38,244 nucleotides of DNA from Candidatus Nanohalobium sp. (GTDB lineage Archaea; Nanohalarchaeota; Nanosalinia; Nanosalinales; Nanosalinaceae), in the NCBI GenBank assembly GCA_042217545.1, contig JBDGSM010000032.1:1-38244 (forward strand). Reading direction: 5' to 3'. Under the pieces are notes generated by a model. It worked only from the letters and a program-made list of their open reading frames with translations. It was not told the DNA's origin and did not search any database. The position numbers and the translations under genes were made by a program. Positions 3,214-29,122 of this stretch are shown piece after piece. Position 1 is the first letter of the stretch; each line of letters opens with the position of its first letter.

Positions 3214-4356
3214 CTACCTTCTCCTCTCGACTATCCTCGCATTTATCGCCAGCAGCAGCACCGAGGCCGCAGCGGCGTAGAACGTGTACCTGAAACCTGC
3301 CGCTCTCTCACCCGTTCTGAGGAAGTACAGCAGCAGGCCTACGACCGAGATCTTTCCGAACCCCTGGAAGACTTCTCTGACAGAGAAGAACCCGAGCACG
3401 TTTCTCTGCTCGGCGATATCAGCGATTATGGATACAAGAGGGACTGTATACACTGTGTATGTGAGGCCTGCGACGAAAGAAAGCAGGAAAGCGATAGATC
3501 GGATCTCAAGGCCTGGTACGAAGAGGTAGACCGCTGCGGAGGCTACTGCTCCGGCCAGAACCATGTCCCTGTGCTCGAGCCGGTCGCTGATCTTCCCGGC
3601 GGCTATGGAGAAGAGGCCTGCTCCTATCGCCATCAATGTCTTGGCTCCTCCGACATTCAATGTCCCTCCGATGATGTAGTAGATGAAGAGCGGGAATATG
3701 AAGACGTATGCGGTGGTGGCGAAGCCGTCGAGGAAGTAGAGAGTCCAGAGATCTTTCTCTCCTGTTCCGAGGAGGCCTTCAAGTTCGAACTCAGGTTTCT
3801 CTGCGGTACCGCGGTAGAGGAGTGGAAGCACCGATGCGATCGCTACCACGAGCGCAAGGGTTGCCAGCAGGTTGAAGCCGAGATATGTCATGACAGCGGC
3901 CCCGATCAGAGGTGCGAACGGGCTTACCAGTTTCGGCACGCCCTCCAGCTTCCCGTAGCTCTCTCCTCTATCCTGTTCATCGCTGCCGACCGTGAACTCT
4001 GTGTTCACAGGTATCCAGTGGAAGGCCTTCGCCAGACCTATCAGAACCGCGACTGTCCAGATCAGAGGATATACAACCTTGAAAACCTGGAGCATCACGA
4101 AGACCACGACGTACAGCAGAGATGAGGCCAGTAGACTGCTCTCCAATCCTATCCTTGAGACAAGCCAGCCTGCAGGAACCGCGACCACCGTGAATGCAGC
4201 CACGTCAACAAGGAGGAAAGTGAACACCGCTGAAACAGGAAAGCCCTGCTGGGCGATGAAGACCGGGATGAATATAGATACCAGGCCGAGAGCGAACCCG
4301 TGGAGCGTCTTGTACGCGGTAAGCCTGTTGATCCTGCTTTCGAAGGCCTCTATCAT
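3214..4356 (-). CDS. MFS transporter
   Basis: 380 aa with about 12 hydrophobic segments; motif-A-like GKISDRL and GWLVSRIG. Confidence 0.85.
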   Translation of the reverse strand: MIEAFESRINRLTAYKTLHGFALGLVSIFIPVFIAQQGFPVSAVFTFLLVDVAAFTVVAVPAGWLVSRIGLESSLLASSLLYVVVFVMLQVFKVVYPLIWTVAVLIGLAKAFHWIPVNTEFTVGSDEQDRGESYGKLEGVPKLVSPFAPLIGAAVMTYLGFNLLATLALVVAIASVLPLLYRGTAEKPEFELEGLLGTGEKDLWTLYFLDGFATTAYVFIFPLFIYYIIGGTLNVGGAKTLMAIGAGLFSIAAGKISDRLEHRDMVLAGAVASAAVYLFVPGLEIRSIAFLLSFVAGLTYTVYTVPLVSIIADIAEQRNVLGFFSVREVFQGFGKISVVGLLLYFLRTGERAAGFRYTFYAAAASVLLLAINARIVERRR

Positions 4357-13735: not shown

Positions 13736-15003
13736 AAGATATCTGGGTTCAGAGGTATCGTGACCACTGCAGAGTCCCTGGAAAGAACAACGTTGATGTT
13801 TTGACAGGTTTCAATGCAAATATCGACGTTCTCTACGATCTTGATGAGATGGATATAGAGCTCGCCGAGGAGGCTGAAAACCTTGAGTCTATCGGCAGCA
13901 TCCATGATCTTCAGGCATTGCTGAAGTACTGTAAGGATAACGGTGTGAACGAGGAGGCCTCTCTTGACGGCTTTGATTACTCATTTGAGAACGGCGAGGA
14001 GCGTGTCGGCGGCCAGGCAGGTATAATGGCGAACTTTCTTTCAGGCATGGGTAACTCCGTGATCTTTTATACTCCTTTTCTCTCACAGGAGCTTGCCGAC
14101 ATGATAAACGTTAACGTGCTGTTCCCGACCGTAGAGGACGACTTCGTCCTGAAAAACGTGCGGGATGCCGCCAACACAGATAGAACAAAGAAGAACATGA
14201 TCTTCGAGTTCGATTCGGAGAAGACCGGTCGTTTGATAGTCTCTGACTCTATTAAAGGCTTCGGACCTTACTTCAGGAAAAGCATAATAGACGAGTTCGA
14301 GGAGATAGATCAGAACCTGAAACGCGTGCTTCTTTCAGGCTTTCACGACATTGAGGGGAATAAAGATGCCAAGCTGGACAAGGCCAGGGAGCAACTGGCA
14401 GTCATCCAGACTCCCGTCCACATGGAGTATGTCAACACCGATGAGAAGACAGCTGAAAAGATAATAAAACGCATATTCCCGAGAATTGAAAGCGTAGGAT
14501 TCGACGAGGAAGAGGCAAAGCAGATCTCAAGTATCTCAAGATCCGAAGATATAGAAGGAGAACTTACCGCAGGTGAGGCCTTTGAAATCGCCAAACACCT
14601 GATCGAAAAATATAGCCTGGAGCGATGCCAGATCCATACATACAACTTCCACATCACAGTAGTTGAGGATGACTACCCTGTGGAGACAGGGAAGATCAGG
14701 GATGCGATGCTTTTTGGCGAGATCTGCGCAGTTAAGACCGCTGAAAAGGGAGACTTCGTCAAGAGGAACGATCTGAAAGAGCTTGACATGGACAACAAGC
14801 ACCTGAAACGACTCGACATGCTGGAAGAGTTCGGAGAGTTCTTCGAAATCGAAGACTTCGCCAGAAACGGCACGGGAAAAGCAGAGGGCTACCGGGTCGC
14901 AGCTATACCAACCATCATACACGAAGAACCGGAAAGAGTGGTGGGCATGGGAGATATAATCTCCTCAGGCACTTTTGTAGGCGAAGTCATGAAAAATCCT
15001 TGA
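13732..15003 (+). CDS. ADP-dependent glucokinase/phosphofructokinase
   Basis: GFNANID, RVGGQAGIMAN, HMEY, QIHT and VGMGDIISS motifs. Confidence 0.9.
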   Translation: MKDIWVQRYRDHCRVPGKNNVDVLTGFNANIDVLYDLDEMDIELAEEAENLESIGSIHDLQALLKYCKDNGVNEEASLDGFDYSFENGEERVGGQAGIMANFLSGMGNSVIFYTPFLSQELADMINVNVLFPTVEDDFVLKNVRDAANTDRTKKNMIFEFDSEKTGRLIVSDSIKGFGPYFRKSIIDEFEEIDQNLKRVLLSGFHDIEGNKDAKLDKAREQLAVIQTPVHMEYVNTDEKTAEKIIKRIFPRIESVGFDEEEAKQISSISRSEDIEGELTAGEAFEIAKHLIEKYSLERCQIHTYNFHITVVEDDYPVETGKIRDAMLFGEICAVKTAEKGDFVKRNDLKELDMDNKHLKRLDMLEEFGEFFEIEDFARNGTGKAEGYRVAAIPTIIHEEPERVVGMGDIISSGTFVGEVMKNP

Positions 15004-19285: not shown

Positions 19286-19864
19286 TTACCCGTACTCTCT
19301 AAAGCCGGCCGTATCAAAGAAGTTGTTCACGACCGCCACCGCATCATCGGTATGGATCACTTCAGGCCCTACAGAAACCTCTTCAGCACCAGCAGAGTTC
19401 AAGGCCTCAAGTTCTTCATTCTTGAAGTCCCTGTGATCGGATAGAACAAACACGGCGTCTTCTCCAGGCCCTGACCCTGGCAGAGATCTTCCGCCTTCCT
19501 TCAGTACGAAAACTTCTTCCTCGAAGCTTTCAAGGAGCTGTCCAAGGCCTTTCTCCTTGACTTTTACTCCGTGCGAGACTTTTTCTCCTTCCCTGTACCT
19601 CTGCTTGATCGCTCTGTTGAGAAGGCCTGCGATGCTACGTTCATCCGGGTTCACTCCGCCGACTTCTTCACCGTTAAAATGGATCACGAGTTCGTCCTGG
19701 AAGATCAGGAATAATTCGTTTTCTTCCCTGATGCCATGGGACTTCAGAAGCGCGGAGTTAACTGTCCTCGCAACCAGGTCTATTCTTCCCTCTCCGGCGA
19801 GGTTGTTCAGGTTGATCTTCGCTCTTGTCGGCGCTTCATGCGCCAGGACGACAAACTTGGTCAT
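19286..19864 (-). CDS. trmY: tRNA (pseudouridine-54-N1)-methyltransferase (SPOUT)
   Basis: GRIDLVAR, SHGIRE, NPDERS, FVLSDH and SVGP..IH motifs. Confidence 0.9.
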   Translation of the reverse strand: MTKFVVLAHEAPTRAKINLNNLAGEGRIDLVARTVNSALLKSHGIREENELFLIFQDELVIHFNGEEVGGVNPDERSIAGLLNRAIKQRYREGEKVSHGVKVKEKGLGQLLESFEEEVFVLKEGGRSLPGSGPGEDAVFVLSDHRDFKNEELEALNSAGAEEVSVGPEVIHTDDAVAVVNNFFDTAGFREYG

Positions 19865-19936
19865 TGAATCGAGTGAGGTGCTTCAGATTAAAATAAGGTG
19901 GGAGCCGAAGGTCGAGGCCTTCTGACTCCAACTAAA

Positions 19937-20135
19937 GTGAACTACTCGCTACCAATCAGAGATTGGAAGGAGCTTCTTTGCTTCACACAGCATTCTCACA
20001 GGAATGCTGTTCGAGCACTCGTTCCCCAAGAAGGGAACGGTGCGTCAACCACGGAACTTGCAAGACGAAACCATTCGTCCCACAGAGGTTTCCAGTGTCC
20101 ACAAGCGTAACTTCGGCTTGTCCCTCGCCTACACC
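19937..20135 (-). ncRNA. Putative TnpB omega-RNA (reRNA)-like structured RNA
   Basis: GGGACAAGCCGAAGTTACGCTTGTGGACACTGG...GCAAGTTCCGTGGTTGA...GAAGC resembles tnpB 3'-end scaffolds; it has several clean hairpins and a TATA box about 25 bp upstream. Confidence 0.6.
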
Positions 20136-20154
20136 ACAAATATTCTCACTGAGA

Positions 20155-20162
20155 TTTATAAA
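20155..20162 (-). promoter_or_regulatory. TATA box (TTTATAAA) inside the element, upstream of the putative RNA
   Basis: Consensus archaeal TATA at the expected spacing from the scaffold start. Confidence 0.5.
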
Positions 20163-20247
20163 GCCGATTCATCCCGCTACCTATCAGAGAAAGGAAGGGG
20201 ACTTCTCGGCAACTAAATTAAAATAAGTTGGATTCGATAAGAGGCCT

Positions 20248-23025
20248 ATGACCGGAGAATTTGCGGCCAGACTCACAGATATCGAGGAGAAGTGGCAGGA
20301 AAAATGGGAAGAAGCAGAAGTTCACAGGACTGAGAAGACTGACGCAGAGAAGTACTATGTCCTGGAGATGTTTCCATATCCCTCCGGCAACCTGCACATG
20401 GGACACGTCCGCAACTTCTCACTGGGCGACGCACCGGCCCGCATGAAACGGATGCAGGGCTACGACGTTATGCATCCGATGGGCTGGGACGCATTCGGAC
20501 TGCCTGCGGAGAACGCAGCGATCGACAGAGATGTAGACCCGGAGGAATGGACAAGGGACTGCATCGACAACATGAGAGGCCAGCTCAAACGTTTAGGCTT
20601 CTCATACGACTGGGAACGGGAGATCGCGACCTGTGACCCGGAATACTACAAGTGGAACCAGTGGATCTTCCAGCAGATGCTGGACGAAGGCCTTGCCTAC
20701 GAGGATGAGTCCAAGGTTAACTGGTGTCCGAGCTGTGAAACAGTCCTTGCTGACGAACAGGTAGAGGACGGACTCTGCTGGAGATGTGACAGTGTTGTAG
20801 AACAGAAGGAGATGGAACAATGGTTCCTCAAGATCACAGAATATGCTGAAGAGCTTCTCGGCGATCTTGAACAGCTTGAAGGCTGGCCTGACAAGGTTCG
20901 GGACATGCAGGAGAACTGGATCGGGAAGAGCCACGGCGCAAAGATTAAATTCCCATTGAGAGGTGAAGACAGAGAATTGGAGGTCTTCACGACAAGGCCT
21001 GACACGATATTCGGCGCAACATTCATGGCGCTCGCTCCGGAGCATGAGTTAACCGAAGAGATAGCTGAAGAGAACCAAGAGGTTGCAGAGTACCGTGAAG
21101 AGGCGATGAAAAAAGATACTGAGGAAAGAGAGGAGAAGTCCAAGGCAGGAGTTTTCACAGGAAGGTACGCCGAGAACCCGTTCACGGGTGAAGAGATCCC
21201 TATCTATGTCGCCGAGTTCGTCCTGACGGATTACGGTACTGGAGCGATCATGGCGGTACCGGCACACGACCAGAGGGACTGGGAGTTCGCACAGGAACAC
21301 GGCGTAGACATCAGGAAAGTCGTCGAGCCTGAAGGAGACCACAGCTTCCAGGAGGAAGCGTATGAGGGCGACGGCGAACACGTTAACTCAGAGTTCCTGG
21401 ACGGCCTGGACAAGGAAGACGGTATAGAAAAGATAATTGAAGAGCTTGAGGATAGAGGCCTTGGCACGCACGACGTGAACTACAAGCTGCGTGACTGGCT
21501 GATCTCCAGGCAGCGTTACTGGGGTACACCGATCCCGATCATCCACTGTGACGAGTGCGGGACGGTTCCCGTGCCTGAAGAGGATCTTCCTGTCGAACTA
21601 CCGGATGACGTGGAGTTCACGGAGACAGGCAACCCTATCGAGACATCGGAGAGCTGGGCGGAGGTCAAATGCCCTGGATGTGGAGGAGAAGCACGGAGAG
21701 AAACTGACACGATGGATACATTCATCGGAAGCTCCTGGTACTTCCTCAGATATATCTCGCCAGAATTAGATGACGCTCCGTTTGACGTGGAGGACGCGAA
21801 CTACTGGATGAACGTAGATCAGTACATCGGAGGGATAGAACACGCAGTCATGCATCTGCTGTACGCAAGATTCTTCACAAAGTTCCTACGTGATGAGGAG
21901 ATGCTCGACGAAGACGAACCGTTCGAAAGACTTCTCACACTCGGAATGGTCAATCATCCCGCGTACAACTGCCCTGAACACGGCTGGCTCTTCCCGGATG
22001 AAGTGGAGGGCGATAACATCTGCGAGAAATGTGGTAGAGAGGTCGAAGTCGAGACCAGGAAGATGTCCAAGTCCAAGCACAACGTCGTGGATCCTACTGA
22101 ACTTGTAAAGGAACATGGAGCCGATACCGCAAGAGTTTTCATCCTTAGAGCTTCAGGCCCTACAAACGAGCTGGACTGGAGCGAGGATGGAGTAGCAGCG
22201 GCGGAGGAAATGCTTGAGAGAGTTGAAAGGATAGTTGAAGAGAACATGGAGGCCTTAACAGATGAAAGGCCTTCTCTGGAGAACGCCGAGCTGTTCGACA
22301 GGATAATGGCTTCGAGAATCCAGAGAGCGATAGAGAAAGTTACGGATGATACCGAGAACTATGATTTCAACCTGGCGATCGACGAGATCGACAGACTGTT
22401 GAGCAAGCTCTACTGGTACGAACAGCAGGGAGGAAAAGATGAAGTTCTCTCACACGGCATCAAGACCTTGTTGAAGTTGCTCAGTCCTTACGCACCGCAC
22501 ATCACCGAGGAACTCTGGCACAGGATCGGTAACGAGAACTTTATGATTGAAGAGGAATGGCCTGAACCTGAAGAAGGCCTTATTGACGAGGACGCTGAGG
22601 AGATCGATGATTACTTCTCCCGCGTCTCCTCAGACATCAGGGAGATCATCGATATGATCGAAGACAGTCCTGAGAAGATTAAAGTTATCAAGGCCTCGGA
22701 TTGGAAGTATTCTGCCGGTGAGAAGATCCTTGACGTGATCGAGGATACTAAAGATGTCGGTGAGGTCATGGATCAGGTGCTTGACGATGACCTACAGCAG
22801 AAGGCGCAGCAGATCAATGAGGAAGTTGTAAAGGCCGTGGAGAATCCTGGAAACTACCGGAAGAACTTCACAGGCCTTGAGCTGGAGGAGGAAGCGCTTG
22901 AACTGAACCAGGAAAGGTTTAAGGAAGAGTTCGGAGTTGAAGTCGTTGTCGAAAAAGAGGATGAAAGCGGCGAGGACAAGGCCTCACGTGCTCAGCCCGG
23001 AAGGCCTGCGATCGTGGCTGAATAG
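20248..23025 (+). CDS. leuS: Leucine--tRNA ligase
   Basis: FPYPSGNLHMGH, GWDAFGLPAENAA, FTTRPDT and YGTGAIMAVPAHD editing motifs, and KMSKS. Confidence 0.98.
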   Translation: MTGEFAARLTDIEEKWQEKWEEAEVHRTEKTDAEKYYVLEMFPYPSGNLHMGHVRNFSLGDAPARMKRMQGYDVMHPMGWDAFGLPAENAAIDRDVDPEEWTRDCIDNMRGQLKRLGFSYDWEREIATCDPEYYKWNQWIFQQMLDEGLAYEDESKVNWCPSCETVLADEQVEDGLCWRCDSVVEQKEMEQWFLKITEYAEELLGDLEQLEGWPDKVRDMQENWIGKSHGAKIKFPLRGEDRELEVFTTRPDTIFGATFMALAPEHELTEEIAEENQEVAEYREEAMKKDTEEREEKSKAGVFTGRYAENPFTGEEIPIYVAEFVLTDYGTGAIMAVPAHDQRDWEFAQEHGVDIRKVVEPEGDHSFQEEAYEGDGEHVNSEFLDGLDKEDGIEKIIEELEDRGLGTHDVNYKLRDWLISRQRYWGTPIPIIHCDECGTVPVPEEDLPVELPDDVEFTETGNPIETSESWAEVKCPGCGGEARRETDTMDTFIGSSWYFLRYISPELDDAPFDVEDANYWMNVDQYIGGIEHAVMHLLYARFFTKFLRDEEMLDEDEPFERLLTLGMVNHPAYNCPEHGWLFPDEVEGDNICEKCGREVEVETRKMSKSKHNVVDPTELVKEHGADTARVFILRASGPTNELDWSEDGVAAAEEMLERVERIVEENMEALTDERPSLENAELFDRIMASRIQRAIEKVTDDTENYDFNLAIDEIDRLLSKLYWYEQQGGKDEVLSHGIKTLLKLLSPYAPHITEELWHRIGNENFMIEEEWPEPEEGLIDEDAEEIDDYFSRVSSDIREIIDMIEDSPEKIKVIKASDWKYSAGEKILDVIEDTKDVGEVMDQVLDDDLQQKAQQINEEVVKAVENPGNYRKNFTGLELEEEALELNQERFKEEFGVEVVVEKEDESGEDKASRAQPGRPAIVAE

Positions 23026-28111: not shown

Positions 28112-29122
28112 ATGGTACAACCAACACCTGTAAACCTGACAAGAGAAGAGAAAGAAGCCAAAGTCGAAGAGTTCGAGGAGAAGATCGAAAGATATCCTGT
28201 CATCGGAATCCTCGACATGCACAACCTGCCAGCAAAGCAGCTCCAGCAGATCAAGAAGGACATGAAAGACTTCGCGGACGTCAAGATGTCCAGAAAGACT
28301 CTTATGGAGATCGCGATCGACGGAGCAGAGAAACAGGACATCGAACAGCTGGAGGAAACTGAAGCAACACAGCCAGCATTCATCTTCTCCGAGAAAGATC
28401 CCTTCCAGCTATACCAGCTGATCAAGGAGAACAAGACAAGCGCAGCAGCACAGGGCGGAGAAGAAGCACCGAACGACATCGAAGTACCTGACGGAGACAC
28501 AGGAATCGGACCAGGCCCAATGCTTGGAAAACTCCAGCAGAGGGGCCTCAACGTCCAGGTACAGGACGGATCAATCCACGTCCAGGACCCAGGAGTCATC
28601 ATCGAGAAAGGAGACACGATCACAAGAGACGACGCGGAGATCCTATCACAGCTCGGAATCGAGCCCCTGGAGATCGGACTCGACCTCGACATCGCCTACA
28701 ACGAAGGAGAACTCTTCACAGCAGAAGAACTCGACATCGACGTCGACCAGTACAGAAGCGACGTGGAAGCAGCAGCTTCACAGGCTTTCAACCTCGCAGT
28801 CAACGCAGGAATCATCAACGAAACAACTGCAGAGACAATCGTCCAGGAAGCAGTCAGAAAGGCAAAGAGCCTGGCGATCAGCGAAGGCCTGCCATTCGAA
28901 GAGACGATCGAGGAAGCACTCGCCTATGCCGCATCCAACGCGGAAGGCCTCGACTCCCAGCTTGACCTAGAATCAGTAGACCTCGAAGACGAAGGAGAGG
29001 AAACTGAGGAAGAAGCTGAAGAGGACGAGAGTGAAGAAGATGAATCCGACGAGGAGGAATCTTCTGACGAATCCGAGGAAGACGAGTCCAAGGATGAAGA
29101 CTCAGACGAAGAAGAGGAGTAA
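28112..29122 (+). CDS. rpl10: 50S ribosomal protein L10 (uL10/P0)
   Basis: QLQQIK, MSRKTL, GDTG.GPGP and LGIEP motifs, acidic tail, operon position. Confidence 0.96.
   Translation: MVQPTPVNLTREEKEAKVEEFEEKIERYPVIGILDMHNLPAKQLQQIKKDMKDFADVKMSRKTLMEIAIDGAEKQDIEQLEETEATQPAFIFSEKDPFQLYQLIKENKTSAAAQGGEEAPNDIEVPDGDTGIGPGPMLGKLQQRGLNVQVQDGSIHVQDPGVIIEKGDTITRDDAEILSQLGIEPLEIGLDLDIAYNEGELFTAEELDIDVDQYRSDVEAAASQAFNLAVNAGIINETTAETIVQEAVRKAKSLAISEGLPFEETIEEALAYAASNAEGLDSQLDLESVDLEDEGEETEEEAEEDESEEDESDEEESSDESEEDESKDEDSDEEEE

Follow-up and report, generated by a model that had tools for sequence, protein, structure and literature searches.

The window, the whole stretch of 38,244 nucleotides analysed here, is contig C26 of genome G000 (1.03 Mb, 82 contigs, 92% complete). 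A spacer of 383 bp lies between the LeuRS gene (plus strand, 20248-23025) and the gene of a TrmY-like RNA methyltransferase (minus strand, 19286-19864). Inside this spacer is a 280-nt element on the minus strand (19937-20216), with borders modelled on the empty-site length. It is protein-free. None of its four internal ORFs (47-87 aa) has a Pfam match at an E value of 0.01 or better, and the single match among them (E 0.07) falls under its cut-off. The features of the element and its flanks, in the reading direction of the minus strand, are as follows.

20217..20223, minus strand: candidate target-adjacent motif TTTTAAT directly outside the left end, similar words recurring at other left ends; exact cleavage point presumed
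20163..20216, minus strand: left end, TTAGTT followed by the composite hairpin GCCGA-GAAGT-CCCCTTCC(hairpin)GGTAGCGGG-ATGAA-TCGGC
20155..20162, minus strand: TATA box TTTATAAA, presumably the former tnpB promoter by its position right after the left-end hairpin
20045..20146, minus strand: remnant of the tnpB 3' end, predicted 5' part of the omega-RNA scaffold, by DNA alignment with the remnant at the end of contig C21; reads ENICGVGEGQAEVTLVDTG
19983..20044, minus strand: nested two-hairpin palindromic repeat, a separate insertion lacking from a metagenome contig of run X3; 79.2 bits with model R1
19937..19982, minus strand: right end, GAAG-CTCCTTCC-AATCTCTGATT-GGTAGCGAG hairpin plus terminal TAGTTCAC, by match to tnpB-linked ends
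19917..19936, minus strand: predicted guide part of the RNA, the flank TTTAGTTGGAGTCAGAAGGC beside the right end, by position only

All the features that the first-pass annotation had described from the letters, including the hairpins, the TATA box, the flank and the translation, are present at these places on the minus strand. The heptamer TTTAGTT is present at both sides of the element, leaving the exact borders ambiguous over 7 nt. Given this word on either side, a 7-bp target duplication is possible for the window copy; none is present in the other copies. The left flank to 20217 and the right flank from 19936 together have exactly the length of the empty site. The direct repeat CTTATTTTAAT also flanks the element (20216-20226 and 19886-19896). 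These words are located ~25 nt ahead of the start codons of the LeuRS and TrmY-like genes, and a similar word is kept upstream of LeuRS in relatives. They would best be read as the TATA boxes of two divergent leaderless genes.

Read on the plus strand, the TTTTAAT outside the left end coincides in part with the TATA-like box of LeuRS, a leaderless gene. Comparison of the left ends showed TTTAAC or TTTTAAC ahead of the copies on C24, C57 and C34 of the same genome, of G039:C22 and G039:C52, of the tnpB-bearing G055:C1 and of the metagenome locus L097; the G014 left end is preceded by TTCAAC. The word before most left ends is likely the target-adjacent motif. Such a TTTAAY-like motif resembles archaeal TATA boxes, which would explain the landing between two divergent promoters.

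The minimum free energy of 19925-20135 is -80.6 kcal/mol compared with -64.4 +/- 4.3 kcal/mol for shuffles (z -3.8; 0 of 200 shuffles equal it). The stretch exceeds chance, and the homologous copies, the matching ends that bear tnpB and the empty sites are more telling than the folding. At gathering score, Rfam gave no match across the whole window, and in E-value mode on 19800-20300 it gave two noise matches alone (E 3.5 and 7.9). No housekeeping RNA model matches, an outcome that favours the first-pass annotation. Several further RNA types were considered and dropped on sequence reading and Rfam: a CRISPR repeat or tracrRNA (prompted by copies at contig ends), rRNA/tRNA processing stems, an H/ACA or C/D sRNA and a hammerhead-like three-way junction.

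Ends of the element and their linkage to tnpB

The left end is closed by a stem of GCCGA (20210-20206) and TCGGC (20167-20163). Its architecture is repeated in four further left ends of genome G000 and is located upstream of tnpB in G069:C14 (L045), in G055:C1 (L050) and in the metagenome locus L097, where a left end of identical type precedes the gene. An AT-rich TATA-like box stands right after the left-end hairpin in the window, in two copies of G039, in G014, C24 and C5, and in L050 and L097.

The right end forms the hairpin CCAATC-TCT-GATTGG at 19966-19952, and its terminus ...GAGTAGTTCAC ends at 19937. Comparison of the two ends showed one hairpin type, nearly repeated in direct orientation (..GAAG-N-CCCCTTCC, an inner hairpin, then GGTAG-NGGG..), with the extra GCCGA/TCGGC stem at the left end only. 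A core common to both ends is also a trait of IS200/IS605 elements. The left (20200-20172) and right (19972-19945) palindromes share CC(C/T)CTTCC-hairpin-GGTAGCG(G/A)G, and the element is without terminal inverted repeats.

The right-end hairpin core with a ..GTTCAC or ..GTCAC terminus lies directly 3' of tnpB ORFs in L050, L049, L045, L053, L093, L094, L095, L099 and L100. In G069:C14 a tnpB frame is enclosed by left and right ends of the window type. Similarly, both ends enclose a TnpB ORF of 374 aa (PF07282, 73.5 bits) in G055:C1, where the left end, of the window architecture, carries a long insertion and the right-end sequence is ..GCTCCTTCC..GGTAGGAGTAGTTCAC. The exact 21-nt core of the right end was found at eight loci in species genomes, two of them in Candidatus Methanohalarchaeum thermophilum, and at nine metagenome loci, five of which have a tnpB ORF directly upstream (L093, L094, L095, L099 and L100). 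A search of viral contigs with the right-end pattern gave no match. In alignment A3, CCTTCC and GGTAG are invariant by design of the search pattern; information comes from the neighbouring bases that are conserved, from the spacing to the terminus and from the link with tnpB. Judged from these sequences, the end type of the window belongs to tnpB elements and is common to TnpB elements of a halophilic methanogen and of unrelated metagenomes. The agreement with the ends of tnpB-bearing elements (L045, L050, L097 and others) bears out the first-pass annotation, which had called the stretch an IS200/IS605-like mini-element.

Descent from tnpB and the predicted RNA scaffold

The start of the scaffold had been likened to the degenerate tail of haloarchaeal TnpB, and the alignment agrees with this. 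Alignment of the DNA from 20146 onward to a remnant at the C21 contig end gave a local score of 47, compared with 17 +/- 2.2 for shuffles (maximum 24). In the C21-end remnant, the homologous tail ..GKGLAESTPAET.. is contiguous with ..DYNAAQNIL.., which we take to be the RuvC-III region of TnpB, a nuclease motif. The collinear frame-1 reading in the window is ..ENICGVGEGQAEVTLVDTG.. Comparison by blastx of the element and the C21-end remnant with three TnpB proteins gave nothing significant (best E 0.08-0.5), and the link to tnpB, as proposed, draws on the DNA homology together with a motif read by eye.

The scaffold contains a hairpin GGC-GAGGGACAA-GCC at 20129-20115 and a second hairpin between GACGAA (20079-20074) and TTCGTC (20069-20064). 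The first has one compensatory pair and the second has two relative to the C21 remnant. For the GAGG-CCTC pairing that the first-pass annotation suggested as possible, the few copies offer no informative variation. The 5' scaffold is kept in the copy on C24 (75% identity) and in G039:C22 (81%). In addition, GTGGAC (20102-20097) can pair with the terminal GTTCAC (19942-19937) and is a candidate for a pseudoknot, yet 266 of 500 shuffles of the upstream region also hold such a 6-mer. The context of GTGGAC in the window matches the tnpB loci L049 and L045; the window does not keep the stem in which L049 holds the 6-mer. In 14 of 17 tnpB-linked loci, the last six bases have a complementary 6-mer situated in a hairpin-loop context, and the two change in step (terminus/6-mer pairs TGTCAC/GTGACA, AGTCAG/CTGGCT, GTTGAC/GTCAAC, GTTCAC/GTGAAC and ATTTAC/GTAAAT). 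In haloarchaeal omega RNAs, the available text of one study describes a hairpin loop that forms a pseudoknot with the terminal motif encoded by the transposon (PMC12558985). The window 6-mer fits this arrangement, weakly for one sequence.

Copies, empty sites and the nested repeat

A regular-expression scan combined with BLAST showed at least five left ends (C26, C24, C57, C34 and C5) and at least seven right ends (C26, C53, C82, C5, the C21 end, C12 and C41) in genome G000. The copies of the ends differ in their flanks, as the first-pass annotation had expected of copies elsewhere in the genome, and six of them are located at contig ends, as is usual for repeats. Full-length relatives of the element are present in G039:C22 (81% identity) and G014:C18.

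Empty sites were found in two places, in line with the anticipated empty-site alleles. In the complete genome G001 of the same genus, LeuRS is followed by ..CCAACTTATATCAAATTAAGTT.. without the element, and the next gene differs. In a contig of run X3, a metagenome of another study, nine other letters separate 19933 from 20223, which gives the same empty-site sequence. This contig is ~84% identical to the window (22 differing letters over 136 nt) and keeps the TrmY-LeuRS synteny. Run X3 also contains a near-identical copy of the element, with one differing letter over 20045-20200 (156 nt). A search of the metagenome contigs with an exact 26-nt interior pattern of the element gave no match.

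Two further groups of loci carry ends of this kind. A second PATE subfamily of ~400 nt is present at C5:~28512-28900 of genome G000 (L005) and in L084/L089, with an interior unrelated to that of the window. Candidatus Methanohalarchaeum thermophilum has two loci with parts of this interior and the same right end, a sharing that suggests exchange of such elements across phyla in brines. Two solo right-end hairpins ending in ..GTAGTTGAC are located at C12:~3550-3580 and C41:~14619-14649 (L101 and L102). They share ~25 nt upstream, and each adjoins the start of a small gene on the opposite strand.

The two long hairpins in the middle of the element had been taken as extra domains of the scaffold. 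Instead, they form a separate insertion of 62 nt. The X3 contig with one differing letter over 20045-20200 joins 20045 straight to 19982, lacking exactly these bases, and the C21-end remnant is also without the repeat. In an alignment of 13 copies of the repeat, 96.8% of the cells are paired and 9 of the 20 pairs have changes on both sides (compensatory). None of 500 shuffles reaches these values, and slid controls are 37-54% paired. Model R1 has matches in 35 of the 70 genomes of the order, with up to 32 per genome, many sites being found on both strands because the repeat is nearly symmetric. The copies are 55-68 nt long with conserved CGCAC..GUGCUCGAACAG..CUGUG and covarying stems (window 19983-20044; L055-L083 and L117-L176), and some are in tandem (L161, L137, L118 and L119).

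The 29 best loci in other genomes comprise 13 in tRNA introns by ARAGORN (11 sense and 2 antisense), 2 that adjoin tRNA-Asp and 14 without a tRNA call, these last including the G039 PATE, one tRNA-Gln intron recognised by eye and a gene for the CCA-adding enzyme. A further 66 sites in 11 genomes, taken from the top of the match list and therefore a non-random sample, include 10 in tRNA introns, 4 beside tRNAs, 12 in frames of at least 120 aa and 40 in none of these. Pfam supports four of the 12 frames as real genes. Comparisons with the G000 orthologs showed in-frame insertions in at least three protein genes: 18 aa in the CCA-adding enzyme (among the 29 loci), ~21 aa in DUF2070 and ~17 aa in PCMT. 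In the PfkB case the repeat is located upstream of the domain, and the comparisons also covered a DEAD helicase. The repeat may prefer RNA genes, namely long tRNA introns in either orientation and the omega-RNA scaffold, and may also enter essential protein genes in frame.

Some observations on tRNA introns and flanks stand beside these counts. ARAGORN showed introns of 6-221 nt in 19 of the 35 tRNA genes of G000. Several of the long ones open with AACTGGTTAC, a word common to them, and then carry a diverged copy of the two-hairpin repeat. The 59-nt tRNA-Arg(TCG) intron of G000 resembles a shortened form of the 124-nt intron of G012. The repeat copies L061, L076 and L079 (G064, G004 and G002) share the flanks ..GGAACGCAC.. 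and ..GCGGAACGYRTCCACC.., which could close a three-way junction; these have no Rfam match. A BHB intron was considered for the nested repeat and dropped on sequence reading and Rfam.

Rfam gave no match on 10 further loci that bear the repeat, and the repeat was not found in the Methanohalarchaeum genome, a single genome searched without a positive control there. To our knowledge, the repeat has no link to any transposase. A literature search covering the available parts of papers found no description of such a repeat in nanohaloarchaea. Since the repeat occurs in half of the genomes while Y1 TnpA was found in only 4 of 70, and its stems carry compensatory changes, its movement or persistence may depend on a so far unrecognised mechanism. 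We tentatively suggest, at somewhat less than even odds, that the insert represents a Nanohaloarchaeota family, new to the literature, of tiny mobile repeats with palindromic sequence, which may have contributed to the unusual length of tRNA introns in these symbionts. The nested repeat is a more original and useful lead than the element itself, being a testable family through which the growth of tRNA introns, the guide RNAs of transposons and in-frame insertions into proteins are linked in reduced archaeal symbiont genomes.

Proposed working, rival readings and known systems

The stretch is best read, with a probability of about 85%, as a non-autonomous, protein-free deletion derivative of a tnpB-only (IS1341-type) element of the IS200/IS605 family, that is, a PATE. 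Through an internal deletion, the last ~45 codons of tnpB would have come to follow the left end and the promoter of that gene. Transcription would start ~25-30 nt past the TATA box, near 20132, a start predicted from the TATA-to-start spacing usual in archaea. The transcript would run through the scaffold and the right end into the flank, giving an omega RNA of roughly 200-220 nt. In TnpB biology, the guide is the flank adjoining the right end, and here the 3' ~16-20 nt (from 19936 down) would serve as the guide. With a compatible TnpB, the RNA would guide cleavage of the empty site of the element itself (a TTTAAY-like motif plus the flank), following the published homing logic. The unrelated 62-nt repeat would have inserted into the scaffold later, and it may have damaged it. 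A Y1 TnpA supplied in trans could move the element because both ends look intact. The sequence comparisons show the identity of the ends, the multicopy state, the descent from tnpB, the insertion polymorphism and the nested insertion; transcription, guide use and any present activity are predictions.

The search for the guide and for protein partners bears on these steps. Within two mismatches, the first 16 nt of the guide match only their own site in genome G000. Two sites with three mismatches are both without the target motif. The empty-site alleles carry a near-identical guide sequence beside the TAM-like motif. The first-pass annotation had called for a search of the guide against haloviruses; in IMG/VR there were 14 exact matches of the 16-mer, none of which extends to 20 nt or is preceded by TTTAAY; they are approximately at chance level by a rough estimate of the collection size. 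The view of a stand-alone cassette held up, and the part of that proposal in which TnpA and TnpB act in trans is without support in G000. Y1 TnpA was not found in this genome (92% complete). In the order, TnpB is sparse (10 of 70 genomes); the search set at phylum level consists of the same 70 genomes. The sole tnpB of G000 (C21:22319-23344, L006/L037; 341 aa) is located between grpE and dnaK. It has a left end of its own, and both its right end, ..GGATGTCAC, and its omega RNA are of another type. A tblastn search of G000 with TnpB of the L050 and L049 types gave no further gene. The window copy may be idle at present because neither TnpA nor a tnpB of matching type was found in G000.

The same origin is also compatible with a dead fossil, in which the promoter is silent or the RNA useless and the element persists merely through incomplete decay or deletion. 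This is possible but rather unlikely. The missing partners in G000, the rarity of TnpB in the order, the scaffold broken by a foreign 62-nt repeat and the loss of the L049-type stem around the GTGGAC 6-mer are all as expected of a fossil, whereas both end hairpins, the TATA box and all the scaffold hairpins are intact in the window copy. Copies in another family of the order share 75-81% identity with the 5' scaffold, and the single differing letter of the X3 copy points to a recent spread; both argue against a fossil. The stretch could instead be a domesticated guide RNA, which would work with the C21 TnpB or with a TnpB of the host haloarchaeon and either regulate the TrmY and LeuRS neighbours or serve in defence. 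Its own promoter, its direction toward TrmY and the one intact tnpB of the genome would suit such a role, and exapted TnpB systems are a published concept in the available text of one source (PMC10691335). However, the element is absent from the site in close relatives and is therefore a recent insertion rather than a conserved locus, the guide has no match in G000 beyond its own flank and chance-level ones in IMG/VR, and the right end of the C21 tnpB is of another type. We regard domestication as improbable.

The remaining explanation, and the one to which we give the least credence, is a housekeeping or otherwise unrelated structured RNA gene, such as an unusual SRP RNA, RNase P RNA or sRNA, that merely resembles transposon ends. 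The strong predicted fold and the TATA box agree with an RNA gene, but the Rfam searches gave noise alone, the stretch is multicopy with differing flanks, the site is empty in relatives and the ends are identical in type to those of tnpB elements. These results already contradict an unrelated RNA gene.

PATEs and stand-alone omega RNAs have already been published, and the window element is another example. It extends this kind to Nanohaloarchaeota, and little else changes. The PATEs of Haloquadratum walsbyi (Dyall-Smith et al. 2011) are described in the available text as IS605 derivatives with near-terminal palindromes that arise by deletion of the core, may retain some C-terminal coding sequence of tnpB (HqIRS71) and are targets of small mobile repeats, SMR-A (PMC3119063). 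By description, they and the window element are alike in being protein-free, multicopy and core-deleted, in having similar near-terminal palindromes of IS605 type and no terminal inverted repeats, and in serving as targets of small repeats, and they differ in the host, a haloarchaeon in one case and a nanohaloarchaeon (DPANN) in the other. The SMR-A repeats, given there as ~110 bp with inverted terminal repeats, also differ from the nested 62-nt two-hairpin repeat.

In Geobacillus stearothermophilus, PATE-like elements often encode omega RNAs that are acted on in trans, according to the parts of the report available (Meers et al. 2023; PMC10055086). OMEGA systems likewise have stand-alone omega RNAs, described as functioning in trans (PMC10691335, partial text). 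As far as these descriptions go, such elements and the window share a left end, a right end and a scaffold without an effector gene, with a guide derived from the flank and TnpB expected in trans. The window element differs in its archaeal TATA-box promoter, inherited from tnpB. The published cases, as presented in those texts, are found beside effector-bearing copies, whereas the searches of G000 turned up neither a compatible TnpB nor a TnpA. The sotRNAs, or omega RNAs, of IS1341-type elements in Halobacterium salinarum come from full tnpB genes and were detected experimentally, as stated in the available text (PMC12558985). As there, the scaffold of the window overlaps the tnpB 3' end and a right-end hairpin is present, and the pseudoknot is plausible in the window. 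The difference from what that text describes is that the Halobacterium RNA is observed and its tnpB is whole, whereas in the window the gene is gone and the RNA is a prediction from the sequence.

The nearest known counterpart of the nested repeat is of another kind. Rickettsia palindromic elements, which belong among the intragenic MITEs, are described in the available text of a review as small multicopy palindromic repeats of a reduced symbiont genome, located in frame in conserved protein genes and in non-coding DNA (PMC10969869). Like these, going by that description, the nested repeat is palindromic, multicopy and present in frame in conserved protein genes. Compared with the ~150 bp given there for the Rickettsia elements, the nested repeat is ~55-68 nt long, archaeal and very often located in tRNA introns.
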